From the IMG/VR virus record IMGVR_UViG_2711768034_000003: a stretch of 37,294 nucleotides of DNA; one strand, written 5' to 3'. The notes under the pieces were generated by a model. It had not been told where the DNA came from. It worked only from the letters and a program-made list of their open reading frames with translations, and did not search any database. Source of the stretch: a virus. Taxonomy: Duplodnaviria; Heunggongvirae; Uroviricota; Caudoviricetes. The position numbers were made by a program, and so were the translations under genes. This document shows positions 23,920 to 37,294 of the stretch, piece after piece. Each line of letters starts with the position of its first letter. Positions within the stretch are counted from its first letter, which is position 1.

Positions 23920-24862
<943 letters not shown>

Positions 24863-24942
24863 CTAAGTCTTTGAATTTACATAGTACAAAAAAGATGCTT
24901 TTCCTCATAATGTGAATTAATTTTATGTTTCGTTTGATGATT

Positions 24943-25008
24943 GGACCGGTCTCGAAAACCGGAGTAGGGGCAACTCTACCGGGGGTTCAAATCCCCCTCT
25001 CTCCGCCA
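24943..25008 (+). other. 3' fragment of a tRNA-Ser(CGA) gene (anticodon stem-loop to CCA); att-like core, not a complete tRNA
   Basis: GGACCGGTCTCGAAAACCGGAGTAGGGGCAACTCTACCGGGGGTTCAAATCCCCCTCTCTCCGCCA matches the 3' two-thirds of enterobacterial tRNA-Ser (serU type); upstream sequence cannot form the acceptor or D arms. Confidence 0.8.
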
Positions 25009-25590
25009 CTTTATCAATGACTTATCTCCCGACTTCCCGCCTTGCTTTTCCTAAACAGAACAATCGTAGAATATTCTTGAAGGGTTAGATCGTCACTGTT
25101 TTCTGTTCGATACTGTGACATTCAGCACTTGATTCGCTATGGATCTGACAGGAAGGTTTCGAGCGAAAATCTGCAGTTATTCAGTCGTTTTCTTATCGGT
25201 CACCATTATTCTTTTAGACATTGATCCTACAAAGCTGCCGCAAAGTTGGTGGTGGGAACTGAAGTTGCGTAGAGAAGGGGTCAATATCCGGAGGCAAACA
25301 TGGGCTGGCAAAAGTGTAGCGGTATTAGGCGCAGCTATTTAGCCTAGTTATGTTTTATGAAAACTTGATATCATATAAGTGTCTTACTTATTGGCTGTAA
25401 ATAAGTCCTTCCTAAGGAATTGTTTCTTGAGTATCATTTGTAACTGTAACGGAATTTATAATCCTTTGCTTTATTGTTACGGTATTTTTTATCACACCCT
25501 ATTTTTAGTGGTTTTTTATACTGAAGTTTGGCAAAGTGAACTTTATATACATATACTTCATCCTGGTTTCAGTTAAATTGGGTGGATGAT

Positions 25591-26334
25591 ATGGCAACTA
25601 CATGTTCAGTTATATTGATTTTGGAGTCCTTTGATGTTTATTTCGGAAAAGAGAGTGTGTTTCTGGAGAGAGGTTCATCTGTACTTGTCGACTCTAGCTC
25701 TAGAGATTTTTTCCTGACATATCCTGAAAGAGTGATAGTGGCGGATTTTGGCGCTGAGTTTATTAGTCGCTATTTGAAAGCTAATAACTTAAGGGATATT
25801 TCTGATTGTAGGGAATATCCATCTTATTTAAAAATAAACTTTGCTGACTTCAGTTTAATTAAAGGATTAATTAGTTGGGCTAATCACTGTGCTGAATACA
25901 TAGAAATTTTTGATGAGTCTATTGCTTTTACATGTCTCTCTGCATTTTCTTCTGAAAAACAATTTGGAGTATTTCTGTTTGGATGTTTGAAAAGCACAGG
26001 GGCTAAAGTTAAAACGATTATTCATACGGATTTATCTGCACCATGGCGTCTTAAGGATATATCATCAAGATTATATCTCAGCGAAAGTTTACTAAAGAGG
26101 AAATTGAAAGAAGAGGGGGTATCATTCAGTAAGATCATACTTGATGAGAGGATGCAAATGGCTGAATATTTACTCAGCACTCGTTGTTATCCTATTAGTA
26201 AAGTAGCTAAGGTCTGTGGTTATGCCAGTGTCTCATACTTTACTTATGTATTTAGACGTTATTTTGGTGTTTCTCCAAGTCAATACTCTCAGAGGAGTTC
26301 AGAAAGTAAAATTCTTACTCACCAGGGAATCTGA
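25591..26334 (+). CDS. AraC/XylS-family transcriptional regulator (Rns/AggR-like size and layout)
   Basis: ATG at 25591 with GGTGGA SD-like sequence upstream. C-terminal dual HTH ...LYLSESLLKRKLKEEGVSFSKIILDERMQMAEYLL...ISKVAKVCGYASVSYFTYVFRRYFGVSPSQY typical of AraC family; AT-rich codon usage. Confidence 0.8.
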   Translation: MATTCSVILILESFDVYFGKESVFLERGSSVLVDSSSRDFFLTYPERVIVADFGAEFISRYLKANNLRDISDCREYPSYLKINFADFSLIKGLISWANHCAEYIEIFDESIAFTCLSAFSSEKQFGVFLFGCLKSTGAKVKTIIHTDLSAPWRLKDISSRLYLSESLLKRKLKEEGVSFSKIILDERMQMAEYLLSTRCYPISKVAKVCGYASVSYFTYVFRRYFGVSPSQYSQRSSESKILTHQGI

Positions 26335-26337
26335 TCA

Positions 26338-26810
26338 TTGTTCTTGCCCCCTTATTTCCAGACAGGGGGTGTATCTTAAGTTAACGTTACCCGCTGACGT
26401 CGATATTCTCGCGGAGAGCGATAACCCAACGCACTGTGCGGATGGTTTTCATTGTAATGTTCGATCGCCACTGCAAGATTATGCAATGCCGTTCTTACAT
26501 TCGGTTTCGGCATGAACGCGATGTAGTCTTCCTTCATCGTTTTCACGAACCTTTCTGCAATTCCATTACTCTGAGGACTGCTGATTGCCGTTGTGCAGGG
26601 CTCCAGATTCAACTCTCTGGCGAACTGCCGTGTTTCATGCGCTCTATACGCTGAACCGTTATCTGTCAGCCACTGGATGGACTGTTCCGGTACTTTATCG
26701 CCAAAGCGTTTTTCTATCGCTCCTAACATGACATCCTGCACTGTCGCTTTATCGTAACCGCCCGTGCTTGCGGCCCAGTCTATGGCTTCACGATCGCAAC
26801 AGTCCAGGGC
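26338..26810 (-). mobile_element. truncated IS2-group (IS3-family) insertion sequence: terminal end plus 3' part of the transposase gene
   Basis: End sequence TTGCCCCCTTATTTCCAGACA resembles the IS2 terminus. The reverse-strand ORF encodes ...[14 protein letters not shown]...[10 protein letters not shown]...[12 protein letters not shown], the C-terminal DDE integrase core of IS3-family OrfB. Homology stops near 26805-26810. Confidence 0.75.
26376..26804 (-). pseudogene. IS3-family transposase OrfB, C-terminal about 140 codons only (5' truncated)
   Basis: In-frame homology to IS2 InsD extends upstream of the first Met (…[28 protein letters not shown]…) to a stop; no N-terminal half and no OrfA. 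Confidence 0.7.
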
Positions 26811-27088
26811 GATTCATCTGGGCCAATCCTTGCTCATAACAGGCATTCACTTCAGTCATGGCAGAAAGGTATGCATGCTGGAGAAGTCGTAAAAGAAAAG
26901 AAGACTGCTGCGCCGTTTGTCGTCACGTTTATCTTCATTGGCTATGCAAGTCGTAATACAAGGTGGGACAAAACTGAGACACATAAGGCCTCGCAATGGC
27001 TTGCAAGGCTTTACATGTTTTGATGTGGTGGGACGTGTGAGCGCAGTGTTGATGGGGTAATGCTTTGAATTAGAAGCGGATTCTTATA

Positions 27089-27134
27089 ATTCGTAATGCG
27101 AAGGTCGTAGGTTCGACTCCTATTATCGGCACCA
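27089..27134 (+). other. 3' fragment of a tRNA-Thr(CGU) gene (anticodon loop to CCA); att-like core, not a complete tRNA
   Basis: ATTCGTAATGCGAAGGTCGTAGGTTCGACTCCTATTATCGGCACCA matches the 3' part of enterobacterial thrW-type tRNA-Thr; the 5' acceptor strand GCCGATA is absent upstream. Confidence 0.8.
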
Positions 27135-27411
27135 TCTTTTCTCGTAAAATCATTAAGTTGCTATTGCAGTGTTTTGCGTTGTTCAACACTAATGTACATT
27201 TTTGCGCGTTATGAGTGTGGCAAAATTGTGGCAGACACAGTGAGATTGTTTGTGGATCAATGCAAGAGTATGCTAACAGCATGTTTACCTTGCAGCTCCC
27301 CCTTGTCTTTGAGCAATACACTACTTGATGGCTGCTGGTTACGAACGTTGTCAGAGATTGCTATCACAAGGGGATGGCGCTGAGAATTCATCCTAAATGA
27401 TTGAGGCCAGC

Positions 27412-28461
27412 ATGGAAAAGGAATTACAGCTCAAAGCTGATGAACAAATAAAAGCATACTCCAAAAAAATAGATTTTTACACCTCAGAATATACTGTAGA
27501 AATACTTGCACAAAAAGTAAGAGCTGGCGAATATACAGTCCCTGCATATCAACGTGAGTATACTTGGGATGAACCAAGAAAATGTAAATTTATTGAGTCG
27601 CTAATCATAGGTCTTCCTATTCCATTCGTATTTTTCTGGATGAATGACGATACCGGAAAACTAGAAATTGTTGATGGTTCGCAGCGGCTTAGAACCATTG
27701 AAGAATATTTTAATAATCGTTTAACCCTTGATGGGCTAGAGCGTTTGGATCTTCTTAATGGTACAAGATTTGAAGATTTACCATTAGCACGCCAAAGAAA
27801 AATTTTAAATAAATCTATCCGGGGAATAATACTATCCGAAGATACAGATATGGAAGCAAGGGTTGATTTATTTGAAAGGATAAATACAGGCAGTAAAGTT
27901 GCTAATCCTGCTGAGGTTAGACGCGGTGTTTTACGTGGTCCATTTATGGATTTAATCAATGAATTGGCTGCTAATCAACTGTTTATTAAACTAGCGCCTG
28001 TTTCTGCAAAGCAAAAAAAAGAACGAGAGCCAGAAGAACTAGTAACTAGATTTTTTGCATACTCCGATGGTCTTGACGGATATAGAGATGATGTATCAGC
28101 ATTTATATTTAGATATATAAAGCGAATGAATGAGTTGTTCGAGGAGGATGCAGCTCTGGCTCAACAATATAGAGATCGCTTTTCTCGAATGTTAGCATTC
28201 GTAGAACAAAGTTTCCGTCTCGGATTTAAGAAAACAGTAAAAGGTACAACGACACCACGTGCTCGTTTCGAGTCCATTGCGATAGGCTCGCATTTAGCAT
28301 TAGAAATTAATGGTTCGCTCCAAGTAACTAAGGAACAAACTGACGAAATATTAGAAAGCGATTCCTTTAAAGCTGAAATTCGATCTGATGGCGCTAACGC
28401 AATAAGAAGATTGCAGGGAAGAATTGGTTATATTAGAGATGCTCTTTTAGAGAGGGCTTGA
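27412..28461 (+). CDS. DUF262 / ParB-like nuclease-domain protein (GmrS-like N-terminal domain family)
   Basis: ATG at 27412 with GAGG SD 6 nt upstream (track ORF starts 15 nt earlier). Signature YTVPAYQREYTWDE...LEIVDGSQRLRTIEEYF characteristic of DUF262. Confidence 0.8.
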   Translation: MEKELQLKADEQIKAYSKKIDFYTSEYTVEILAQKVRAGEYTVPAYQREYTWDEPRKCKFIESLIIGLPIPFVFFWMNDDTGKLEIVDGSQRLRTIEEYFNNRLTLDGLERLDLLNGTRFEDLPLARQRKILNKSIRGIILSEDTDMEARVDLFERINTGSKVANPAEVRRGVLRGPFMDLINELAANQLFIKLAPVSAKQKKEREPEELVTRFFAYSDGLDGYRDDVSAFIFRYIKRMNELFEEDAALAQQYRDRFSRMLAFVEQSFRLGFKKTVKGTTTPRARFESIAIGSHLALEINGSLQVTKEQTDEILESDSFKAEIRSDGANAIRRLQGRIGYIRDALLERA

Positions 28462-28463
28462 TC

Positions 28464-29189
28464 ATGCAACTAGTAAAAGATGTTTTTGATGAAAGAGTTG
28501 CTGATATCGAGAGCTATTTTGAATTGGTGAATAATGTTGAGCTTGCAATTGGCTCTGGAGGAGCGATATTCAGTGTTAATGGGACGCAATACCAAATAAA
28601 TCCTGATCAGCAGAAGATAATGTATTCTGGAATATATCTACATTTGTATAATTTGGTCGAATCGACGATCTCTATGTTAATAGATGCTGTCGAACGGCAT
28701 GCGGCGCAAGGAATTAATGGACAACTGGTTCTACTAACTGAAAACATGAAGAAGCTGTATGTTAAATCTGTAGCAGCTCCTTTTGAATCAATAAATAATG
28801 ATTTACGGTTAGAGAAGGCGTTAGAACTATTTGACCAAGTATTAAATATAAAGCCTCTTGAACTTAGGATCCCGCCGGGAGGCGGAGGTAATTGGGACTT
28901 AAAAGAAATAGAGAGGATAAGTAAGAGTATAGGTGTTGATGTCACTCTTCCCAGAGCGCTTAGGGCAAAGGTAAATGCTCCATTTAGAGACGATAAAGGA
29001 CCTATTCGGCTAGTTAAAGAAATAAGAAACAAATTAGCTCATGGTTCTCTTTCATTTACACAATGTGGTACGAACCATGTAGCCAGTGATTTTAGGCGGT
29101 TGATTGATATAGTCAAAGAATACTTAGCCCATATAATCCGATCTTATGAAAACTTCATAACCGCACAAGGTTATAAGATTGCACAATGA
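28464..29189 (+). CDS. HEPN-like domain protein (R-x4-H motif), translationally coupled to the DUF262 gene
   Basis: ATG at 28464, 2 nt after the DUF262 stop, with AGAGGG SD inside the upstream gene; C-terminal EIRNKLAHGSLSF fits the HEPN Rx4-6H motif; 241 aa. Confidence 0.65.
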   Translation: MQLVKDVFDERVADIESYFELVNNVELAIGSGGAIFSVNGTQYQINPDQQKIMYSGIYLHLYNLVESTISMLIDAVERHAAQGINGQLVLLTENMKKLYVKSVAAPFESINNDLRLEKALELFDQVLNIKPLELRIPPGGGGNWDLKEIERISKSIGVDVTLPRALRAKVNAPFRDDKGPIRLVKEIRNKLAHGSLSFTQCGTNHVASDFRRLIDIVKEYLAHIIRSYENFITAQGYKIAQ

Positions 29190-29192
29190 TAT

Positions 29193-30257
29193 TTATTTGG
29201 CCAAGGACGTAATTATACTTTGGCCAATAATCTCTCCTAACTTGACCGGAACTGCATTTCCGATCATTTTAGCTAATGTAGCTACGCTTAGCGGGTTTTC
29301 GTCATCATGAAACTTATAAGCTAAAGGAAATGATTGTAGTAATGCAGCCTCCCTTAGACTGATCGCTCGATCTTGCACAGGATGCCCAAATCTACCATTC
29401 CCATAACCATTACATTGAGTAGTAATTGTTGGTGATGGCTCATCCCATGTCATCCGTCCATAAACACTTGGATAAGTTTTTCCTGTCATTTTCTTATGGC
29501 AGCTAGCCCTTAGTTCTTCCGGCCAATCCAGCCAAGAACCGCCAGGTTTTGAATATTGAATCCGCTTTAAGTTTATAGGGCTTAGAATTGACGAGCGATG
29601 TATAGGATCAACCTTATCCTTTTCGCCTGCTGTTATGCGAGGAAGATGCTCAATCGCATCTCTTACAGTGACATATTTATCTGCAGTATGCGTAGCTGGT
29701 ATTATTGATATCTCGCTAACTTTTGATGCGATTAATACTAATCTTTTTCGCGTTTGAGGGATTCCATAATCAGGACAAAATACGATTTTATAATCAAATG
29801 AATAACCGTTATGCCGAAGAGTTGCTAAAAACGCATTAAATACTCCCTGTTCTGCCAAGCCAGGAACATTTTCCATTGTAACGAAATCAGGAGTGATCTC
29901 ATTGATCAGGCGCCCAAAGCTTTCCAGAAGGTTCCATCGTTTGTCAGGAGAAGTAGTTCGTTTTATATTTGCTCTGGAATATGTTGAGAAGGGTTGGCAA
30001 GGTGCACATCCAGCAAGGAGGGTGTAATCGCCGCCAGCCAGATACTTTGCTACATCATTTCCTGAAAGATGAGTTACATCTTGTTTTATAAATCTGGCGT
30101 TGTTATTGATTTCATACGCATAACGACAAGATTCCTCGATATCATATCCGGCGGTCACGGATATGCCTGAACGCTGGAGACCATGCGTTAGCCCCCCGGC
30201 TCCACAAAAAAGATCCACTGCCTTAATTTTTGTATGATTTTTCAACGTAAACCTCAC
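29193..30257 (-). CDS. DNA (cytosine-5)-methyltransferase
   Basis: Motif I DLFCGAGG, motif IV GCAPCQPFS (PCQ), ENV, QTRKR, and GNAVPV all present in canonical order. Start is GTG at 30257 or, more likely, TTG at 30245 preceded by a GAGG SD. Convergent with the HEPN gene, 3 nt apart. Confidence 0.9.
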   Translation of the reverse strand: MRFTLKNHTKIKAVDLFCGAGGLTHGLQRSGISVTAGYDIEESCRYAYEINNNARFIKQDVTHLSGNDVAKYLAGGDYTLLAGCAPCQPFSTYSRANIKRTTSPDKRWNLLESFGRLINEITPDFVTMENVPGLAEQGVFNAFLATLRHNGYSFDYKIVFCPDYGIPQTRKRLVLIASKVSEISIIPATHTADKYVTVRDAIEHLPRITAGEKDKVDPIHRSSILSPINLKRIQYSKPGGSWLDWPEELRASCHKKMTGKTYPSVYGRMTWDEPSPTITTQCNGYGNGRFGHPVQDRAISLREAALLQSFPLAYKFHDDENPLSVATLAKMIGNAVPVKLGEIIGQSIITSLAK

Positions 30258-30600
30258 TACTTAGACGTGGCGAATTATAGCAAAATTTACAATGAACATC
30301 GAGGGATTTTATTTCCTTTGAAATCATGTATATAGTTATTTTTTAAGTTAATACTCAACAGTTAGATGCTGAGATACTCTTTCCTGCCAGACAATCAAAC
30401 ATAGTTCCACCTAGTTTTCCTGCAAGGACTTTGAATCTGTTCACCGCCTGCAAAATTAGGTCGAAAGAATGTTACAACAACAACATACACAGGCAATCAA
30501 ACACGCTTAGTCGTCCATTAGTATTTCCGGCTGATTAGATGTAAGATCTTAAGGTCTAATGTAGGCTGTTCCATTCAGGCCAGAGTGGCAAAATAAAAAG

Positions 30601-30630
30601 GCCCGATCTTACCAGTCGGGCTTCTTTATA
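30601..30630 (-). terminator. rho-independent terminator (reads best on the minus strand, downstream of the HigA-like gene)
   Basis: GCCCGAtcttaccagtCGGGC; on the minus strand the hairpin is followed by CTTTTTTATTTT. Confidence 0.6.
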
Positions 30631-30821
30631 TCGGCTTTTAATGTCGCCTGTACCACTGCTAAAATGACTTACCTAGTCATGGCAGGTTCCCATCATCAAG
30701 GATCGGATTTTTTAATCCTCAGTCGTCCGAGTATATTATCGCTTTAATAAGTCGTTAGAAATGTATGAGTATTATTCAAAGCAAATTATGTATTAGGACT
30801 AAGTAATCTAATTGAATAATC

Positions 30822-31079
30822 TTACTTTTGTTTATTAAACCATGCCTCATGTAGCTCTTGCAGTTTCACCCAAAAAGATGCATCTGTATTGAAAATTATC
30901 GAGAGTTGAATAGCTTCTTCAAGAGTTATATTTCGCTCATTTTTAATTATTTCCCAAATTTTTTCATATGATGTATCCATCAGTTCAGCAAGTCTTGCGG
31001 GAGGCATATCCAATGGTTTCAAGAATTCTTCGTATAAAATCTCTCCGACAGTTGAAGGTGCAGCATTTATTGTCCTCAT
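30822..31079 (-). CDS. HigA-family antitoxin-like XRE HTH protein (orphan; no adjacent toxin ORF)
   Basis: 85-aa ORF with ...TVGEILYEEFLKPLDMPPARLAELMDTSYEKIWEIIKNERNITLEEAIQLSIIFNTDASFWVKLQ... matching the HigA/VapI addiction-module antidote pattern; strong SD AAGGGGGGG upstream of the ATG at 31079. Confidence 0.7.
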   Translation of the reverse strand: MRTINAAPSTVGEILYEEFLKPLDMPPARLAELMDTSYEKIWEIIKNERNITLEEAIQLSIIFNTDASFWVKLQELHEAWFNKQK

Positions 31080-31122
31080 ACCCCCCCTTTTTTTTAAACG
31101 TCATCGGATTCCTTACAGTAAT

Positions 31123-31138
31123 TTGTTTAGCTAAACAA
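31123..31138. repeat. 16-bp perfect palindrome TTGTTTAGCTAAACAA (candidate operator)
   Basis: Self-complementary; related palindromes GGTTAGCTAACC (31234-31245) and GTTTAGCTAAAC (31312-31323) share the TTAGCTAA core. Confidence 0.6.
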
Positions 31139-31411
31139 ATCAGAGAGTAAGGTTAGTTGAAGTGTTTTTCTTACTCAAATTCGATATATCCGTTGTCAGA
31201 AATGAATCATTTACAAACAGTGTTTCTTATAAAGGTTAGCTAACCAAATTTATAAGTCATCTACAATCCCCTGTTATTTACATTTTGTTTCATTTTATTT
31301 ATTGCTATTTAGTTTAGCTAAACAATCTATTTTATCATGTATAATCTGTGTATTTATCCACAGATTCTGTTAATAATATTGTGTATAACTTGTTTGCTTA
31401 TTTTTTATTAT

Positions 31412-31477
31412 ATGACATATGAGGTGCGCCTTTATGACATATGAGGTACGCTTTCATGACATTTGAGGTACGGATAT
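31412..31477 (+). repeat. three tandem 22-bp direct repeats (iteron-like): ATGACATATGAGGTGCGCCTTT / ATGACATATGAGGTACGCTTTC / ATGACATTTGAGGTACGGATAT
   Basis: Read directly from the sequence; contiguous, no spacers, in an AT-rich non-coding stretch. Confidence 0.8.
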
Positions 31478-31722
31478 AATTTAAAATTGTCATATTAAAC
31501 AAGTGAATATATCGCTTTTCCACACCTCTCTAACCTGATCTTTAACCTTTTATATAACCAAAAAGATTAAAGGAATTATTAAAACCTTAGTGTCATTCAG
31601 AAATCGGTCAATAAAACCAATTTCATATGGAGTAAGAATCCGATGAATAAAAACCCTGTTGACATTATTATTTTTGCCAGTAAGTTTTAATTATTCTCAA
31701 TTCATAACGTTGGTTAGCAAAC

Positions 31723-31750
31723 TTTAGCGGCTAAAATTTTAGCCGCTAAA
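31723..31750. promoter_or_regulatory. 28-bp perfect palindrome TTTAGCGGCTAAAATTTTAGCCGCTAAA (candidate operator) just upstream of the HTH/AT-hook gene
   Basis: Perfect dyad symmetry; ends 22 nt before the ATG at 31773; shares the TTAGC/GCTAA half-site with the upstream palindromes. Confidence 0.65.
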
Positions 31751-31772
31751 ATCCTCAAATTTCTACTGAGAG

Positions 31773-32066
31773 ATGGGTTCTTCGATGAAATCAGTTATGC
31801 CAGAACTTATAACCGTTGAAGAGTTGGCTTTTGCATTAAAGAAAACTGTAAAAAGTATCCGCAGTGATGCAACGCGAAATCCAAAATGTCTTCCACCAAG
31901 ATGCCGTCTTCCCGGTAATAAACGTCTTCTCTGGCGTAGAGAAGATGTTAAGGACTGGATAGATAAATCTGTTGAGTCAAAGACAGAAAATGACGATATA
32001 GCGAAAGAGATAAATAGGTTTCAAAGGAAACGTGGCAGGCCGCCAAAACCCAAGCCGCGAGAATAA
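31773..32066 (+). CDS. small DNA-binding protein, excisionase/AlpA-like HTH with C-terminal AT-hook (RGRPPKPKP)
   Basis: 97-aa ORF; ...ELITVEELAFALKKTVKSIRSDATRN... and ...RLLWRREDVKDWI... resemble MerR/excisionase-type HTH; basic tail FQRKRGRPPKPKPRE is an AT-hook-like motif. Confidence 0.55.
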   Translation: MGSSMKSVMPELITVEELAFALKKTVKSIRSDATRNPKCLPPRCRLPGNKRLLWRREDVKDWIDKSVESKTENDDIAKEINRFQRKRGRPPKPKPRE

Positions 32067-32169
32067 AAATATTTCTTAGGGTCATTCAAATAATTTCCCT
32101 TCCAATAAACACATATGCTGCACATTTTTACACTACTAATCCTGCACAAATGCTTTAGGAAAACACACT

Positions 32170-32336
32170 GAGTACACAGGAATACACAATACGTACACAG
32201 ATTCACAACGGCAAATGTAGGGCAGGATATGTAAAGTAGGCCCACCGTAAACGGTGCTTCTACTTTACCTTCCCTTATTCGCAGCTGAGCTGCTCAACGG
32301 AGTCCTGCTCTGCGAGGCTGATCGGCTACCGCCTGT
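32170..32336 (+). promoter_or_regulatory. candidate origin of transfer (oriT) / MobC operator region: TACACAG repeats and nested inverted repeats
   Basis: gagTACACAGgaaTACACAatacgTACACAG (about 32172-32210); nested IR GTAAAGTAGgcCCACCGtaaaCGGTGcttCTACTTTAC (about 32228-32266); then GCAGCtgaGCTGC and ...GAGTCCTGCTCT... immediately upstream of the MobC-like gene. Confidence 0.4.
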
Positions 32337-32348
32337 ATGGAGAATGAT

Positions 32349-32702
32349 ATGACCGTTTCTCAGACTAGAAAAAATAGTACACCAATTAAAGTTTATTGTT
32401 TGCCAGATGAAAAAGCGCAAATCCAGGAAAATGCTGAAGCATCTGGCTTAAGTGTAGCGAGTTTCATTCGTAAAGTAGCAATGGGTTATCAGGTTGAATC
32501 TATGGTAGATATTGAACAGGTTGTAGAGCTTAGCCGAGTAAATGCTGATCTTGGTCGACTTGGTGGGTTACTTAAACTGTGGTTAGCTGACGATCCACGC
32601 ACAGTTGATTTTTCACCCTCATTGATAAAAACGTTGCTTGCTAAAATAGAATCAACCAGACAAGAACTAAGAAATATTATGGATAGAATCTTGGATAAAT
32701 AA
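32349..32702 (+). CDS. MobC-like ribbon-helix-helix relaxosome accessory protein
   Basis: ATG at 32349 with GGAG SD. N-terminal RHH-like IKVYCLPDEKAQIQENAEASGLSVASFIRKVAMGY and central VELSRVNADLGRLGGLLKLWL resembling the MobC family motif. Confidence 0.55.
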   Translation: MTVSQTRKNSTPIKVYCLPDEKAQIQENAEASGLSVASFIRKVAMGYQVESMVDIEQVVELSRVNADLGRLGGLLKLWLADDPRTVDFSPSLIKTLLAKIESTRQELRNIMDRILDK

Positions 32703-32783
32703 ATTTATGGTTTCCTAAATATCTGTATTTGTTAAAAGTACGAGTTTTCAATATTAATAATCAATTAAATTTGAGGTGGGCAA

Positions 32784-33578
32784 ATGAAGTTAATGCTCCG
32801 AGTATTTTCATCACTGAGAGGGATTTTAGCAGCTAAAAAATCATTAGCAGCTTCCTTCCTGGCGTCCATCATGGCATTACCGGCGACAGCCGGTATCCCT
32901 GTAATTGATGGTACTAATGTGGTGCAGACCACAATCAGCGCAGTCAACAACGTTCAGGCTGTGGCAAAACAGATCCAGCAGTACCAGACGCAGCTGCAGC
33001 AGTATGAAAACATGCTCAAAAATACAGTCGCACCTGCAGCCTATATCTGGGATCAGGCCAATTCGACCATCAACAAATTGTTGCAGGCGCAGGACACCCT
33101 TAATTACTACAAAAACCAGGCCGGGAGTCTTGATTCATATCTGAAACGTTATCAGGACGTGAATTACTACCGCTCATCACCATGCTTTAACAGTAATGTT
33201 GAATGTACTGCGGATGAAATTAGCGCACTGCGCAAAGCTGAACAGAACAGCTCTGAGGCACGTAAAAAGGCCAATGACGCTGTATTTAAGGCTCTTGACG
33301 AACAGCAGGAAACACTGCAAAGCGATGCTGACAACCTTGCAGATTTGCAAACGCAGGCAACCGGCGCACAAGGGCAAATGGAAGCTATTCAGGCCGCTAA
33401 CCAGCTTGCCAGTGCTCAAACGAACCAGTTGCTGCAAATCCGCTCGCTTCTGGTATCCCAGCAAAACGCTGCAGCAACACTGGCACAGGCTGAGGCTGAT
33501 AAAGAAGCCCAACAAATAGTCGCTGATGAAAAAGCGTTAGCTGGCGAGAACACACTAAGCCCGAAGCGAATTTGGTGA
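32784..33578 (+). CDS. trbJ: P-type conjugative transfer protein TrbJ (VirB5-like)
   Basis: 264-aa ORF with signal peptide; ...PATAGIPVIDGTNVVQTTISAVNNVQAVAKQIQQYQTQLQQYENMLKN... matches the TrbJ N-terminal signature; coiled-coil Q-rich body; GAGGTGG SD upstream. Confidence 0.75.
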   Translation: MKLMLRVFSSLRGILAAKKSLAASFLASIMALPATAGIPVIDGTNVVQTTISAVNNVQAVAKQIQQYQTQLQQYENMLKNTVAPAAYIWDQANSTINKLLQAQDTLNYYKNQAGSLDSYLKRYQDVNYYRSSPCFNSNVECTADEISALRKAEQNSSEARKKANDAVFKALDEQQETLQSDADNLADLQTQATGAQGQMEAIQAANQLASAQTNQLLQIRSLLVSQQNAAATLAQAEADKEAQQIVADEKALAGENTLSPKRIW

Positions 33579-33589
33579 GGGAGAGCTGA

Positions 33590-33763
33590 ATGAAAGATAA
33601 ACTTTTGGTCATTTTTATTCTAATAATTTCATTAATTCTATGCTCTTGCGATAAAAAAGATGAATATTGTTTATCGACGCCAGAGAATAAATTGAACGAA
33701 CATAACTACGATAAATGTGCCCTGCGTGGCAATAACAATCCTAGCCCTAAGCGAGAATGGTAA
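33590..33763 (+). CDS. small lipoprotein, TrbK-like entry-exclusion candidate (not in the supplied ORF track)
   Basis: ATG at 33590 with GAGGGAG SD; 57 aa MKDKLLVIFILIISLILCSCDKKDEY... with lipobox-like LILC; sits between trbJ and trbL as trbK does in IncP Tra2. Confidence 0.5.
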   Translation: MKDKLLVIFILIISLILCSCDKKDEYCLSTPENKLNEHNYDKCALRGNNNPSPKREW

Positions 33764-35160
33764 TTATGAGAATAGTAAGCAAACTCACTTTTTTAGGAAT
33801 GTTTTTTTTGTTTTCTGTAAATGCTTATGCTGGTCAATTAGATAGTAGCGGATTACTTGATACGTTATTAGATAAGTTTCAGCAAGTAGCCAGCACATGG
33901 TCATTAGTAATTGGTGATTATGCAAATTGGCTCTTCTGGGGGCTGGTATTAATAAGTATGGTTTGGACATTTGGTATGTTGGCGATGCAAGGGGAAGGTT
34001 TAATCAGTGCACTTGCAGAAATAGTTCGTTTTTTTGCCGTGATTGGTTTTTTTTATTATCTTTTAATCAACGGCCCAGCCATATCACAATCTATAATTAA
34101 CTCAATGAGACAACTTGCAGCAAATGCTTTAGGAACAAGTACTGGTATTTCACCCTCCAGCATAGTTGATATGGCTTTTGTGATATTAACAAAGGTCAGT
34201 TCAGCAGCATCAATTTGGTCTCCAATGATTTCGACCATTATGATAACCGTCGCGATAATAGTATTAGTAGTAATGGCGCTTATCGCGATAAATATGCTAA
34301 TAATGTTAGTTTCTGCATGGGTGTTGTGTTATGCAGGAGTTATTTTGCTTGGGTTTGGTGGCTCGAAATGGACTTCTGATATAGCAATAAATTACTTACG
34401 CACAGTATTATCGATTGGTATTCAGTTATTTACGATGACATTAATCATTGGGATTGGGCAATCATTTATAGATCAGTATTTTTCTATTATTAAAAATGAT
34501 ATTCCTGATCTTAATAGTCTTATTGTTTTACTTCTGGCGTCAATTATTCTTTTAGTATTGACGAATAAATTACCGTTGTTGTTATCAGGCGTTGTTGGAG
34601 GAGCGTCCTTACAAGGGATCGGTGGTTTTGGAGCAGGTATGATTACTGGCGCTGCTACTACTGCAATCAGTGGCGCTGGGACAATGGCAATGAGTGCTAC
34701 AGCTCAAGTCAGTGGTGGTGCTTCCGCTCTAAAAGCAGCATTTGAATCTGCACAAGCGGCGATGGCCGAAGAATCTGGTTCTGGTGATAAAGGTGGTTCA
34801 GGTGGAGGATTTGGCGGAGGGGAAGATACCGGTTCCGTAGATACTTCTGGAGGACAACCATCAGGCGGTTCCGGTGGTTCTTCTGCAGGGAGTAATACAG
34901 GTAGCGTTAGCGGAGGAAGCCAGGGGTTTGCTTCATCATTCTCACGAGCTGGCCGCATGGCTTCTCACATGGCGAGCGGGCTGTCTAACGGAGCTTCGGA
35001 GTATCAGATGATGAAGGGAAGTGCTAATTCTATCCGAACACAACAGACTGTTGATGGGGAAATAGCGAATCAAATACGTAAACACACAGCCGATCGTCAG
35101 AGTAACCACGAACAGGATGAGTTTGAGGGTGATAGTTTTACTGGCAGTAAAAAATCTTGA
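33757..35160 (+). CDS. trbL: P-type conjugative transfer protein TrbL (VirB6-like) with Gly/Ser-rich C-terminal tail
   Basis: Multi-pass hydrophobic protein with signal-like N-terminus (MRIVSKLTFLGMFFLFSVNAYAG from the alternative ATG at 33766) and C-terminal GSGGGFGGGEDTGS...SGGSGGSS low-complexity tail typical of TrbL/VirB6. Confidence 0.75.
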   Translation: MVIMRIVSKLTFLGMFFLFSVNAYAGQLDSSGLLDTLLDKFQQVASTWSLVIGDYANWLFWGLVLISMVWTFGMLAMQGEGLISALAEIVRFFAVIGFFYYLLINGPAISQSIINSMRQLAANALGTSTGISPSSIVDMAFVILTKVSSAASIWSPMISTIMITVAIIVLVVMALIAINMLIMLVSAWVLCYAGVILLGFGGSKWTSDIAINYLRTVLSIGIQLFTMTLIIGIGQSFIDQYFSIIKNDIPDLNSLIVLLLASIILLVLTNKLPLLLSGVVGGASLQGIGGFGAGMITGAATTAISGAGTMAMSATAQVSGGASALKAAFESAQAAMAEESGSGDKGGSGGGFGGGEDTGSVDTSGGQPSGGSGGSSAGSNTGSVSGGSQGFASSFSRAGRMASHMASGLSNGASEYQMMKGSANSIRTQQTVDGEIANQIRKHTADRQSNHEQDEFEGDSFTGSKKS

Positions 35161-35167
35161 TTTAGGC

Positions 35168-35199
35168 GCGTCAGTTAGCGCGGTAACGTTAACTGACGC
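35168..35199. repeat. 10-bp perfect inverted repeat GCGTCAGTTA ... TAACTGACGC (12-nt spacer)
   Basis: Read directly; lies between the trbL stop and the next gene's RBS; no T-tract follows. Confidence 0.5.
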
Positions 35200-35229
35200 T
35201 TCCACTAAACACCTGTAAGGAGGTGGATA

Positions 35230-35442
35230 ATGGTTGATTATAATAGCTTAGTTTTGGAAGGGCTAAAAATCCTTTTTTCCGACAAAAATAATGAATTTGT
35301 AAAAAAACTCTATGATCCCTTGATAAATATTCTGTGCATTGAAGACTATTATTTTGCTACCGGGATTTATGATTCAGAAGATGCGTCCAAACAAATTGAA
35401 AAGCTAAAGAAAGCAATAAATGATTATAGGTTTAATTATTAG
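35230..35442 (+). CDS. hypothetical small protein (70 aa)
   Basis: Strong SD TAAGGAGGTG 6 nt upstream of the ATG; no recognisable family. Confidence 0.5.
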   Translation: MVDYNSLVLEGLKILFSDKNNEFVKKLYDPLINILCIEDYYFATGIYDSEDASKQIEKLKKAINDYRFNY

Positions 35443-35446
35443 TAAT

Positions 35447-35486
35447 TAGAAAGAGGCTAACAAAGGTTAGCCTTTCTTTTATTTTG
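35447..35486. terminator. bidirectional rho-independent terminator between convergent genes
   Basis: AGGCTAACaaagGTTAGCCT, an 8-bp perfect stem flanked by an A-run on one side and TTTCTTTTATTTT on the other. Confidence 0.65.
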
Positions 35487-35667
35487 ATTTTCCAGTGTAA
35501 TAGTTAAATACCTCAAGTCTAGCTTCTTCATAAGTCAATTCTCCATTAATGACCTTGCTCTTTATTAGTTCATAGTATGGTAACCCTCGCGGATCTTTGT
35601 TTGATAAATATAAACTCGCCTCCGCTTTCTTGAAAGCTTTAGTACGCTTATCATATATTGGATTCAT
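35479..35667 (-). CDS. hypothetical small protein (62 aa), co-transcribed downstream of the 439-aa gene
   Basis: Starts 4 nt after the stop of the upstream reverse-strand gene; basic, helical; no recognisable family (a VbhA/FicA-type inhibitory motif was looked for and not found). Confidence 0.45.
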   Translation of the reverse strand: MNPIYDKRTKAFKKAEASLYLSNKDPRGLPYYELIKSKVINGELTYEEARLEVFNYYTGKSK

Positions 35668-35671
35668 TTAT

Positions 35672-36991
35672 TCAAAACTCATTATCGTGTTTTTTTTCAT
35701 TAACTGTACTACTGATTTCTTGAGGTTCGTAATCATCTTCTTCATGATAGTCTTTCACAGAACTCCCAATCTCTTCAATTTCTGCTTCTCCTATAGCAAA
35801 CTTGCCTAGTATGATTTTACTTTTATTTGTAAAGGAGACATCAATTTCTTCACCGCAATAAGGCTTGTCTTCATGAGTGGTTCCTGAAAGGATGCACTCG
35901 AACTTGACTTTAAACGATTCATCAGTGAGTTCGCTGTCTATAATTTGCAGGTTTTCTACATAGTCAAAGTAAGCGTTAGTTTCTGCTATGCTACCACTTA
36001 CTTCATCACAATGAATCAAGTCGTACATACCATTTTCCTCAAGATTGTCACGTATTTTTTCACTGACCTCATCTTTTGTAAGGATTTTTATATTGAGATC
36101 CTCTTCGAATATATTCTGTAAATGTTCAAATAAAGTGTAGCTGTCAATATCTTCATCAATATTTTCGTCTTCGATTATTGATTTAATATCCGCTATTAAA
36201 CTTTCTGAGTAAATTATATAATCAATCGCCTCTAAAGAATCTGTGTTGAAATTTTCATCTTCGAGTAATTTTGTAAAAGATGTGTATCCAAAAACACTAG
36301 CGATTACTGCGCCTAAACCCGAAAGCGAGATTTTAATTGAATCAGCAGTAAGTATTAAGTCAAGTTTATTAATTAAATAGAAGGCTGAGGAAAGTTGTGA
36401 TATTTTCTTTTTTTCCTCGATTTGATATTTCAGTTTGTCATAGCTCATTTTTTCTCTCTCTCTGCTCATAGCCTCTCGTGAGAGTTTGATTTCTGTTGCT
36501 TGTTTTTCTTTGATAGAAGTCTCCAGTTCAATTTTCATTTTCTCAGATTTTTCGTACATCGCTTTAATAATTACTGAGGATGCTTTAGAGCGTTCCTTTA
36601 TATCTTCAGTTAGTGTTTTTTGTTGTTCGATTCTTTCATTGCTAAATGCTATTTCTTCGATGATTTCTTGAGCTGCAATTTCACTCTCATGCTCAGCCTT
36701 ATATTTTGAGTTAATAAGCCTTGCTCTTTCTTTCTCTTTTTTTACTTTTTGATTAATGCTAGAACAATATCTTATGTGTTCTATCTCACCTTGAATTAAC
36801 CCAGTAAGATAATTTACTAAGGGTAATAAAAATAAATATGCTAGCATCAGAAATGCTATCAATAAATATTCTGAAGTGGTAATCCCAGTTAAGAATGATT
36901 TAAATTGAGTGACTCTGGAGTCGATTGTTCCAGTTCCCCAAAATAGCAATGTGAATTTATCCCAGTATAAAATTACAAATATAGCACTCAA
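35672..36991 (-). CDS. hypothetical membrane-anchored coiled-coil protein with acidic C-terminal domain; 5' end abuts an IS1 terminus (possibly truncated)
   Basis: 439-aa ORF; hydrophobic N-terminal segments, long K/E-rich coiled coil, D/E-rich C-terminus. The only in-frame start before the IS1 inverted repeat is a TTG at 36989-36991; the next ATG is codon 49 (36845-36847) without an SD. Confidence 0.5.
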   Translation of the reverse strand: MSAIFVILYWDKFTLLFWGTGTIDSRVTQFKSFLTGITTSEYLLIAFLMLAYLFLLPLVNYLTGLIQGEIEHIRYCSSINQKVKKEKERARLINSKYKAEHESEIAAQEIIEEIAFSNERIEQQKTLTEDIKERSKASSVIIKAMYEKSEKMKIELETSIKEKQATEIKLSREAMSREREKMSYDKLKYQIEEKKKISQLSSAFYLINKLDLILTADSIKISLSGLGAVIASVFGYTSFTKLLEDENFNTDSLEAIDYIIYSESLIADIKSIIEDENIDEDIDSYTLFEHLQNIFEEDLNIKILTKDEVSEKIRDNLEENGMYDLIHCDEVSGSIAETNAYFDYVENLQIIDSELTDESFKVKFECILSGTTHEDKPYCGEEIDVSFTNKSKIILGKFAIGEAEIEEIGSSVKDYHEEDDYEPQEISSTVNEKKHDNEF

Positions 36992-36997
36992 TGTGCC

Positions 36998-37294
36998 GGT
37001 AATGACTCCAACTTATTGATAGTGTTTTATGTTCAGATAATGCCCGATGACTTTGTCATGCAGCTCCACCGATTTTGAGAACGACAGCGACTTCCGTCCC
37101 AGCCGTGCCAGGTGCTGCCTCAGATTCAGGTTATGCCGCTCAATTCGCTGCGTATATCGCTTGCTGATTACGTGCAGCTTTCCCTTCAGGCGGGATTCAT
37201 ACAGCGGCCAGCCATCCGTCATCCATATCACCACGTCAAAGGGTGACAGCAGGCTCATAAGACGCCCCAGCGTCGCCATAGTGCGCTCACCGAA
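36998..37294 (-). mobile_element. IS1 (partial; continues beyond the right window edge), with terminal inverted repeat at 36998-37020
   Basis: GGTAATGACTCCAACTTATTGAT is the IS1 terminal inverted repeat; downstream sequence encodes the InsB C-terminus. Confidence 0.9.
37013..37294 (-). CDS. insB: IS1 transposase InsB, C-terminal part (5' end beyond window)
   Basis: ...[93 protein letters not shown] is the InsB C-terminus. Confidence 0.9.

Follow-up and report, generated by a model that had tools for sequence, protein, structure and literature searches.

IncP-1-type origin and operator sites in the control spacer of a thrW integrative mobilizable element, a probable interface with helper plasmids

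Operator-like sites in the spacer

The window analyzed here is a stretch of 37,294 nucleotides from the IMG/VR virus record IMGVR_UViG_2711768034_000003 (Caudoviricetes). Positions 1-27088 are a lambdoid prophage in the tRNA-Thr gene thrW, and a repeat of the 3' part of this gene marks the start of a second element, which occupies the same site in tandem with the prophage, a small integrative mobilizable element (IME), here also referred to as the island. Its gene order is a cargo of DUF262/NsnA-like, HEPN and C5-methyltransferase genes, a HigA-like helix-turn-helix (HTH) gene, a spacer (31120-31770), a gene referred to as orf97, oriT-traJ, and then trbJ, a gene for a TrbK-like lipoprotein, and trbL; these are followed by a small open reading frame (ORF) with a PtaRNA1-like antisense RNA, an ORF of 439 to 465 amino acids, and int (Table 1). 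The A+T content of the window peaks in the spacer (GC content of 0.27 in 31201-31600, 70% A+T over 31080-31772), which combines operator-like palindromes with an origin-like repeat array, both of the type found in IncP-1 plasmids. Based on the identity, arrangement and conservation of these sites, the spacer is probably the helper-plasmid interface, or docking hub, of the element.

Table 1. Features of the island and its spacer, with positions in the window (OA, OB and OT, operators of KorA, KorB and TrbA; DUE, DNA-unwinding element)
Feature	Position	Strand	Sequence, basis or remarks
Left island border	27087-27131	+	Repeat of thrW 3' part; marks start of second element
HigA-like HTH gene	30822-31079	-	TIGR02607, 2.1e-18; variable left neighbour of spacer
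OA1	31125-31136		Perfect KorA-operator match GTTTAGCTAAAC; centre of 20-bp palindrome 31121-31140; 11-12/12 kept in 6 diverged variants
Leftward sigma-70 promoter (predicted)	31150-31178	-	-35 TTGAGT (31178-31173), 17-bp spacer, -10 TAACCT (31155-31150); toward HigA-like gene
OT-like site	31180-31191		TrbA-operator-like near-palindrome TTCGATATATCC; 12/12 identical in all 6 other variants
OA2	31234-31245		KorA-operator variant GGTTAGCTAACC, 2 symmetric mismatches; 12/12 in Escherichia and Enterobacter variants, absent in Serratia
Block X	31277-31296		TTTACATTTTGTTTCATTTT; 19-20/20 identical in all variants vs 45-84% background
OA3	31312-31323		Perfect KorA-operator match GTTTAGCTAAAC; ~30 bp upstream of DnaA box
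DnaA box	31354-31362	+	TTATCCACA, perfect consensus; position and orientation relative to iterons same as in plasmid oriV; 6-9/9 conserved
Three TrfA-type iterons	31411-31476	+	Cores TGACATATGAGGTGCGC, TGACATATGAGGTACGC and TGACATTTGAGGTACGG; exact 22-bp phase; matches to plasmid oriV and RK2 iterons
DnaA-box-like sequence and unwinding-element-like tract	31516-31590	+	TTTTCCACA, then A+T-rich tract with AACC-ending 12-mers (CTCTAACCTGATCTTTAACC...); aligns with DUE side of plasmid oriV
Rightward sigma-70-like promoter (predicted)	31659-31686	+	TTGACA (31659-31664), 16-bp spacer, TAAGTT (31681-31686); reads via block Y and OB pair into orf97
Block Y	31704-31721		Consensus TTAACGTTGGTTTGCAAA, also (A/T)TAACGTTGGTT(A/T)GCAAA; abuts KorB sites; 14-17/18 kept
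OB1	31723-31735		Perfect KorB-operator match TTTAGCGGCTAAA; part of 28-bp palindrome 31723-31750
OB2	31738-31750		Perfect KorB-operator match TTTAGCCGCTAAA; part of 28-bp palindrome 31723-31750
orf97	31773-32066	+	Putative excisionase/AlpA-like winged-helix protein with C-terminal AT-hook KRGRPPK; fold match, family alignment
IncP-type oriT	32220-32319	+	TraJ inverted repeat and nick region; Rfam traJ-II RF01760, 93.1 bits vs gathering score 40
traJ	32337-32702	+	Pfam NikA-like; TraJ 70% identical to pEC187_3
trbJ	32784-33578	+	NCBIfam TrbJ, 1.5e-113; 88.5% identical to pEC187_3
trbK-like lipoprotein gene	33590-33763	+	Length and lipobox same as TrbK of pEC187_3-type plasmid; sits between trbJ and trbL
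trbL	33757-35160	+	Pfam TrbL; 59% identical to pEC187_3

The palindromes and the three 22-bp iterons that the original prediction had described in this AT-rich DNA were all recovered. The direct repeats were found again by a repeat search and by Tandem Repeats Finder (period 22, 2.8 copies, 90% matches, score 96), the 28-bp perfect palindrome was recovered independently by the repeat search, and the first palindrome, TTGTTTAGCTAAACAA (31123-31138), extends to one of 20 bp. Compared with 100 dinucleotide-preserving shuffles of the whole 37-kb window, GTTTAGCTAAAC occurred twice and TTTAGCNGCTAAA three times, each with an expectation of 0.00, while the iteron core TGACATWTGAGG occurred three times versus 0.36 expected, a number reached by 1 of the 100 shuffles. 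The palindromes had been grouped into one family with a shared half-site. The repeats are real, but they fall into two operator classes that differ in half-site spacing, one of 12 bp, in which GTTTAG is followed directly by CTAAAC, and one of 13 bp, TTTAGC-S-GCTAAA.

The two classes correspond to the operators of two global repressors of IncP-1 plasmids. The consensus of the KorA operator (OA) is the symmetric 12-bp sequence GTTTAGCTAAAC (PMC2665229), and the core of the KorB operator (OB) is TTTAGCSGCTAAA, the 13-bp palindrome TTTAGC(G/C)GCTAAA (PMC11790492). The 28-bp palindrome arises because two 13-bp KorB sites stand side by side with AT between them. A third KorB site, with A as the central base, is located inside the 5' end of trbJ (32825-32837); as a trbJ-internal OB is also found in R751 (25579) and pEC187_3 (5965), this site is an inherited feature of trbJ genes. 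At the place equivalent to OA3, the plasmid oriV contains degenerate OA-like half-sites.

The near-palindrome on the left side of the spacer may belong to a third class. The operator of TrbA (OT) overlaps promoter elements of trbBp, traGp, traJp and traKp. The island sequence TTCGATATATCC resembles this operator, a palindrome around CGATATATCG. In R751, the trbB promoter region contains TTCGATATATCG and the traG promoter region a near copy of it, and OT has been described to overlap the -10 element of trbBp (PMC13584720). Two further blocks, X and Y, which match the operators in their degree of conservation, had no counterpart in the IncP-1-like plasmid and are candidate sites for the island's own proteins (orf97 or a left-hand regulator) or for host factors.

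While the operator sequences are those of the plasmids, their arrangement is not. In the plasmids, OB lies just upstream of the -35 element and OA over the -10 element with a centre-to-centre distance of 32-33 bp, and class I IncP-1 promoters are characterized by an OB located 32-36 bp from an OA that overlaps the -10. Both trfAp and korAp of pEC187_3 have this classic layout, with OB, TTGACT or TTGACC, a 17-bp spacer, and TAAACT inside OA. In the island, no convincing promoter with a -10 inside OA1 or OA3 was detected, and the nearest OB is ~400 bp off. The OA sites are ~400-600 bp from the OB pair, with the origin-like array between them, and the OB sites are in tandem and downstream of the best predicted promoter. 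A distance of a few hundred base pairs between OA and OB would be compatible with KorB acting at a distance, locked by KorA.

This best predicted promoter is the rightward one, the sole promoter that scored highly in all seven island variants in a position weight matrix scan of the seven-way alignment described below. The predicted leftward promoter is bracketed by the OT-like site and OA1. An alternative promoter is predicted from the OB pair itself (TTAGCG, 17 bp, TAAAAT), and a simple promoter/terminator scan of the spacer returned one weak minus-strand promoter only. A transcript starting at ~31693 from the predicted rightward promoter would carry the 28-bp palindrome as a 12-bp perfect hairpin (minimum free energy of the 97-nt leader, -25.6 kcal/mol; z = -3.4 versus shuffles), and the palindrome could then be read as a 5' untranslated hairpin that controls translation or stability of orf97. 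We consider this extremely improbable, since any perfect DNA palindrome yields such a hairpin. Furthermore, the OB arms are invariant between variants and variation (G, C or A) affects only the middle position of each 13-mer, as the KorB consensus allows, rather than taking the form of compensatory stem changes. No T-tract follows the stem, and an Rfam scan of 24000-37294 gave no family inside 31080-31772.

The origin-like array and the conservation of the sites

The middle of the spacer has the organization of an IncP-1 replication origin. The window segment 31412-31548 matches only the region directly downstream of trfA, in ~89 conjugative plasmids and several times per plasmid, and in the local alignment the last three plasmid iterons are followed by TTTTCCACA and then by the CTCTAACCWGATCTTTAACC 12-mers. 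The island iterons are identical at 16-17 of 17 positions to the oriV iterons of pEC187_3-type plasmids, YGACATWTGAGGTACGC, and at 12-13 of 15 positions to the TrfA iteron consensus of RK2, TGACA(G/C)(A/T)TGAGGGGC (PMC9499019). The oriV of pEC187_3 contains 2+7 copies of YGACATWTGAGGTACGC at a 22-bp phase, with DnaA boxes before them and A+T-rich AACC-ending 12-mers and a GC-rich tract after them. In the island, AACC recurs at a 12-bp phase (31532, 31544 and 31556), and the tract 31526-31590 is conserved at 50-59 of 65 positions versus a background of 45-84%. The order of elements in RK2 oriV is DnaA boxes, iterons, and an A+T-rich DNA-unwinding element (DUE) with 13-mers (PMC4980987), and the island has the same order of DnaA box, iterons and DUE in shortened form.

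Compared more widely with the IncP-1 origins of RK2/RP4, R751, pEC187_3 and p2018_02_02CC, the island shares the core TGACAnWTGAGG, the 22-bp phase, and the order and orientation of the elements. It differs from them by having three iterons (versus 5 in the minimal RK2 origin and 2+7 in pEC187_3-type plasmids), fewer 12-mers, no GC-rich tract, no trfA anywhere in the element, and a chromosomal location. The suggestion of an origin-like structure in an integrated mobilizable element is thus borne out by collinear homology with the plasmid oriV downstream of trfA and by the att-flanked oriT/traJ/trbJKL island in which the array lies. An IncX/R6K origin, suspected because of the 22-bp iterons and the traJ matches, was ruled out by the trfA/korA/incC/korB/trb/tra backbone of the matching plasmids, and a role of the iterons as integrase arm sites was ruled out by their distance of >4 kb from either att end.

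DNA shared with the island is found in conjugative enterobacterial plasmids of ~41-50 kb with a full IncP-1 backbone, consisting of ssb-trfA, oriV, a klcA-like gene, kleE, korA, incC, korB, kfr, traK-M, traJ-I-G-F and trbB-L. One of them, the candidate helper pEC187_3, contains 11 perfect OB and 2 perfect OA sites, and R751 uses the same operator vocabulary, including the OB in trbJ. The island therefore resembles the KorA/KorB(/TrbA) regulon of IncP-1 plasmids in its exact OA and OB sequences and in the OB at the 5' end of trbJ, but it encodes no regulators of this regulon.

In order to assess conservation, seven island variants were aligned, including E. coli variants at 86%, 80% and 73% identity, variants from two Enterobacter species, and one from Serratia marcescens; a related-locus search with orf97 yielded two Enterobacter loci only, and the deeper relatives came from a protein search. 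The original prediction had considered that the repeats might be absent from homologous islands or not conserved in them; the motifs are conserved across the Escherichia, Enterobacter and Serratia variants. Columns outside the motifs are 84% down to 45% identical to the window, and across the three genera the spacer drops to 45-52% identity. In contrast, OA1, the OT-like site, block X, OA3, the iteron cores and the OB arms are ~95-100% identical, and there are always three iterons at 22 bp. For the variant L004, with a background identity of 52%, the probability of such motif conservation is ~3e-28 (binomial, with columns taken as independent). The 3' half of the iteron occurs in two states only, GGTAC(G), which is GGTACGC in pEC187_3, and GGGGC, as in p2018_02_02CC and RK2. 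The arrays of L004, L005 and L009 are mixed, with two RK2-like GGGGC iterons and one GGTA-type iteron (L004, 9142-9207), as if tuned to two TrfA specificities.

As judged from this alignment, the spacer motifs are under strong purifying selection, and their pattern fits a mobile element whose core is under selection, not a plasmid fragment in decay. The spacer could nevertheless be viewed as an inert relic, that is, debris of an IncP-1-like backbone caught when the island was formed and now decaying without function. The truncation of the origin (3 iterons versus 9, fewer 12-mers, no GC-rich tract), the absence of trfA, and the damage by insertion sequences (IS) in many island copies would fit such a history. 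However, the motifs have remained near-invariant while the intervening sequence is 45-52% identical across three genera, with iteron number and phase fixed and the OB arms unchanged. In addition, the left array (OA1, OT-like site, OA2, block X and OA3) has no homologous stretch in the plasmid and hence is not simply inherited plasmid sequence. Therefore, an inert relic appears quite improbable.

The proteins expected to act on these sites are not encoded by the island. Searches with tblastn for TrfA, KorA, IncC, KorB, TrbA, TraI, TraK and Ssb gave no match in the window or in three whole islands, with TraJ alone being found, and island annotation and Pfam scans showed no Rep-family gene (repA/repC). 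The original prediction had assigned the palindromes to one of the flanking HTH proteins, in which case the HigA-like protein or orf97 would autoregulate the divergent gene pair. OA1 is 43 bp from the start codon of the HigA-like gene and the OB pair is 23 bp from that of orf97, blocks X and Y could be the island's own operators, and HigA antitoxins commonly autoregulate via palindromes. This assignment was not borne out and is very improbable. The palindromes are letter-perfect KorA and KorB operators, and plasmids are regulated by these same sequences. The HigA-like protein resembles neither KorA nor TrbA, and its identity as a homologue of either was ruled out for lack of any alignment. In Serratia, unrelated small ORFs are found in the place of the HigA-like gene, which rules it out as a conserved master repressor, yet OA1, the OT-like site, OA3 and OB are kept there. 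orf97, for its part, has an excisionase-type fold, and excisionase-type proteins usually bind direct repeats near att sites, not 13-bp palindromes. With the cognate genes absent from the island and the HigA-like protein unrelated to KorA and TrbA, the sites are best explained as targets of IncP-1-type plasmid proteins acting in trans.

A proposed interface with IncP-1-type helper plasmids

The spacer probably connects the island to a helper plasmid in several ways. TrfA from a resident or incoming helper, together with host DnaA, would fire the shortened oriV on the excised island circle. KorA, and perhaps TrbA, on the left side and KorB on the right side would put divergent transcription under the control of the helper's global repressors, with the OB pair placed directly before orf97 at the head of the orf97-oriT-traJ-trbJKL block. 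With its operators under such control, island expression would be expected to change when a helper is present. Partition of the excised circle by IncC/KorB could in addition use the KorB pair as a borrowed centromere. Binding of KorB to a chromosomal operator has been described for P. putida (PMC7314908).

Several points weigh against this interpretation. KorA and KorB are repressors, so that a simple wiring would turn the island genes, including the excisionase-like gene, down with the helper present, which is the opposite of helper-induced excision unless an inverter (a repressed repressor) is interposed; the leftward gene that could provide such an inverter is not conserved. The leftward promoter is poorly predicted, being strong in some E. 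coli variants only and deleted in L004 and L009. The origin is reduced: all seven variants have three iterons as opposed to five in the RK2 minimal origin, three to four phased 12-mers are present where RK2 needs all four 13-mers, conservation does not extend to the second DnaA-like box and one variant has a degenerate copy of the first, and the GC-rich tract of the plasmid oriV is missing. The designation of TTCGATATATCC as a TrbA operator is tentative, with its support coming from position. Among 5,426 complete E. coli genomes, none contained both the island spacer and a plasmid with iterons of this type, but with ~0.8 such genomes expected, this count is uninformative. Finally, binding by helper proteins, replication with TrfA in trans, and regulation together with its direction are what we infer from sequence.

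The island has clear relatives among the recently described Pseudomonadota integrative mobilizable elements (PIMEs), with int, alpA, a replicase gene, traJ, trbJKL and defence cargo (bioRxiv 10.64898/2026.01.12.698999; January 2026 preprint). For PIME1, it was shown experimentally that excision, replication and transfer occur only with the IncP helpers pB10 and pKJK5, and its replication cut pB10 amplification sharply, suggesting incompatibility. The preprint leaves the helper's inducing signal unidentified and makes no mention of KorA, KorB, TrfA or operators; its search required a replicase, and hence a replicase-less subfamily would have been missed (bioRxiv 10.64898/2026.01.12.698999). The island resembles PIMEs, including GIsul2-type elements, in its integrase border, putative AlpA/Xis-like gene, IncP-like oriT with traJ, trbJ-trbK-trbL, and large defence cargo. 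It differs by the absence of a replicase (repA/repC) and of a LuxR-type regulator, by a helper-type origin in place of an own RepA-oriV, and by its location in thrW as opposed to guaA. The guaA island of E. coli HS is a PIME1, and its oriT is nearly identical to that of the window island; homology over the whole spacer was ruled out for this pair, as the oriT part alone aligns. Both PIME1 and a GIsul2-like island contain isolated TrfA-type iterons, an OA-like site, and OB sites near traJ/trbJ. By its gene content and sites, the element is a replicase-less, thrW-targeting relative of PIMEs with an origin and operators of the helper's type.

Borrowing of helper sites by an IME has a precedent in SGI1, which carries stolen parS sites of its IncC helper and uses them to expel the helper (PMC10954446). 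SGI1 and its IncA/IncC helpers thus resemble the system proposed here, with the parS sites stabilizing SGI1 and destabilizing the helper and with SGI1 also replacing subunits of the helper's type IV secretion system (PMC10954446). However, the helper protein sensed by SGI1 is an activator, AcaCD, and SGI1 encodes a replicase of its own, whereas the sites borrowed by the island are those for repressors and for the helper's replication initiator. Staphylococcus aureus pathogenicity islands (SaPIs) and phage-inducible chromosomal islands (PICIs) are similar in having divergent regulatory genes around a control region, a rightward operon with an AlpA/Xis-like gene at its head, an iteron origin, and reliance on a helper. 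They differ in that the helper of the island would be a conjugative plasmid and not a phage, in that the island has no primase or replicase, and in that its left regulator is unconserved.

The same sites could instead work against the plasmid. As an anti-plasmid decoy, the iterons and KorB sites would titrate or handcuff TrfA and KorB and, together with the TrbK-like entry-exclusion lipoprotein encoded between trbJ and trbL, would reduce IncP-1-like plasmids in copy number, stability or entry, with the chromosome or the excised island as the source of this incompatibility. It is known that extra iterons depress RK2 copy number via TrfA dimers (PMC6961859), and the reduced pB10 amplification caused by PIME1 and the expulsion of its helper by SGI1 are in line with such an activity. 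The lack of any E. coli genome with both island and plasmid would also fit, as would the numbers for trbJKL-type matches, with at most 1 co-occurrence versus ~3.5 expected, a difference that is not significant. While this possibility is compatible with a docking hub, we regard it as unlikely to be the explanation. The DnaA box and the unwinding-element 12-mers, in the order and orientation of the plasmid, would be superfluous for a pure decoy, yet they are conserved; three single-copy chromosomal iterons would be a weak titrator compared with the plasmid's own nine; and the KorA operators would be left unexplained.

The proposed docking hub is of interest since IncP-1 plasmids are major broad-host-range vehicles of resistance, and PIME-type islands, lately shown to depend on them, are now viewed as reservoirs of anti-phage defence; spacer-bearing and related elements shuffle such defence systems. 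The spacer offers concrete hypotheses for helper sensing, in which conserved sites in the island are direct targets of the helper's global repressors and replication initiator. Should the origin function in trans, an integrated element would parasitize the replication initiator of a plasmid, and perhaps its partition system, in addition to the transfer machinery, and the SGI1 paradigm, in which an activator is sensed, would be widened to the sensing of repressors. The ~41-50 kb enterobacterial IncP-1-like plasmids are likely natural helpers for those E. coli PIME-type islands whose oriT is not mobilized by pB10 or pKJK5. A further-reaching proposal, which we put forward as speculative and consider doubtful, is that a replicase-less IME with a complete set of helper cis sites (oriV iterons, KorB centromere/operator pair, KorA and TrbA operators, and oriT) would, once excised, act as a satellite replicon wholly dependent on IncP-1 trans-acting proteins for replication, partition, regulation and transfer. 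PIME-type islands would then sense their helper through KorA, KorB and TrfA, and the mixed GGTAC/GGGGC arrays would exploit two helper lineages.

Other features of the element and its neighbourhood

The description of the right-hand gene as encoding an HTH and an AT-hook agrees with both alignment and structure search. The orf97 family has an invariant N-terminal domain and an invariant RGRP AT-hook motif. An AlphaFold2 model of the protein (pLDDT 72.7) gave BldC, the GIsul2 excisionase (8c3t), RdfS and Pukovnik Xis as the best Foldseek matches, all excisionase/MerR-type winged helices, with probabilities of 0.97-0.99 but E-values of only 0.05-0.15; there was a weak HTH_17 match and no significant match to Pfam AlpA. 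Homologues of orf97 head operons of inovirus prophages. In a distant relative from Burkholderia sp. Cy-637 (L013, 5863-8060), located beside dnaA-dnaN-gyrB, an orf97 homologue overlaps the beginning of a trfA gene that belongs to the element itself; iteron-like repeats of another kind, traJ and an OB site come next. Self-replicating ancestors are suggested for this type of island by such an arrangement. For the HigA-like gene, no ORF for a HigB toxin partner was found on the minus strand between 31080 and 31400.

The extent of the island can be seen from other copies. In PS_131_S11, a copy with 99.9% identity forms an island of ~11 kb between thrW and a second thrW 3' end adjoining a tyrosine integrase gene, and in the intact copy L001 both ends are formed by thrW 3' repeats, the right one located beside a tyrosine integrase gene. 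The copy in the window is ended by IS1 at 36997, and a right-hand repeat of the L001 type falls beyond IS1. The IS1 transposase gene (36998-37294) interrupts the 5' end of the 439-amino-acid ORF and truncates the island, and thus the integrase gene and the right att repeat are outside the window or lost. Among the 5,426 complete E. coli genomes, the spacer is present on ~129 chromosomes and related trbJKL modules are present at ~282 chromosomal places.

In the transfer region, the nick region of the island oriT, GGAGTCCTGCTCTGCGAGGCT, is identical to that of pEC187_3, and oriT/traJ of island and plasmids share 69-91% DNA identity. Directly upstream of the oriT inverted repeat lies an ACAC-rich 21-bp tandem repeat, AGGAAAACACACTGAGTACAC, in 2 copies (32157-32200), which is largely kept in PIME1 of E. 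coli HS and may be a site for a relaxosome accessory protein. Directly after trbL, a match to PtaRNA1 (RF01811), the antisense RNA of a plasmid-transferred type I toxin-antitoxin system, is found on the minus strand (35164-35236) with 45.1 bits, slightly below the gathering score of 47. It is adjoined by a small ORF (~35230-35442, plus strand), and the GIsul2-like relative L012 has a toxin annotation of the ptaRNA1 family at the equivalent place (16616-16840).

The left cargo is wholly different between variants, with NsnA-like plus methyltransferase, ABC-three-component, CBASS, NACHT, or AAA plus S8 peptidase genes, and the presence of other defence systems at the same position identifies this position as a defence-cargo hotspot. 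In the window, the cargo (27397-30257) comprises an NsnA-like DUF262 protein (PADLOC, 1e-58), a HEPN-like nuclease and a C5 cytosine methyltransferase. Within a 565-bp ORF-free gap between the methyltransferase gene and the HigA-like gene, a strong bidirectional terminator-like hairpin is present (30590-30625; GGCCCGA...TCGGGCC with T/A runs on both sides), and a similar hairpin occurs in an extra 280 bp of the variant L004. At the distal end of the neighbouring prophage, a GIY-YIG gene (23921-24817) matches the PD-T4-3 defence model (4e-135), and an AraC-family gene is located at 25582-26334.

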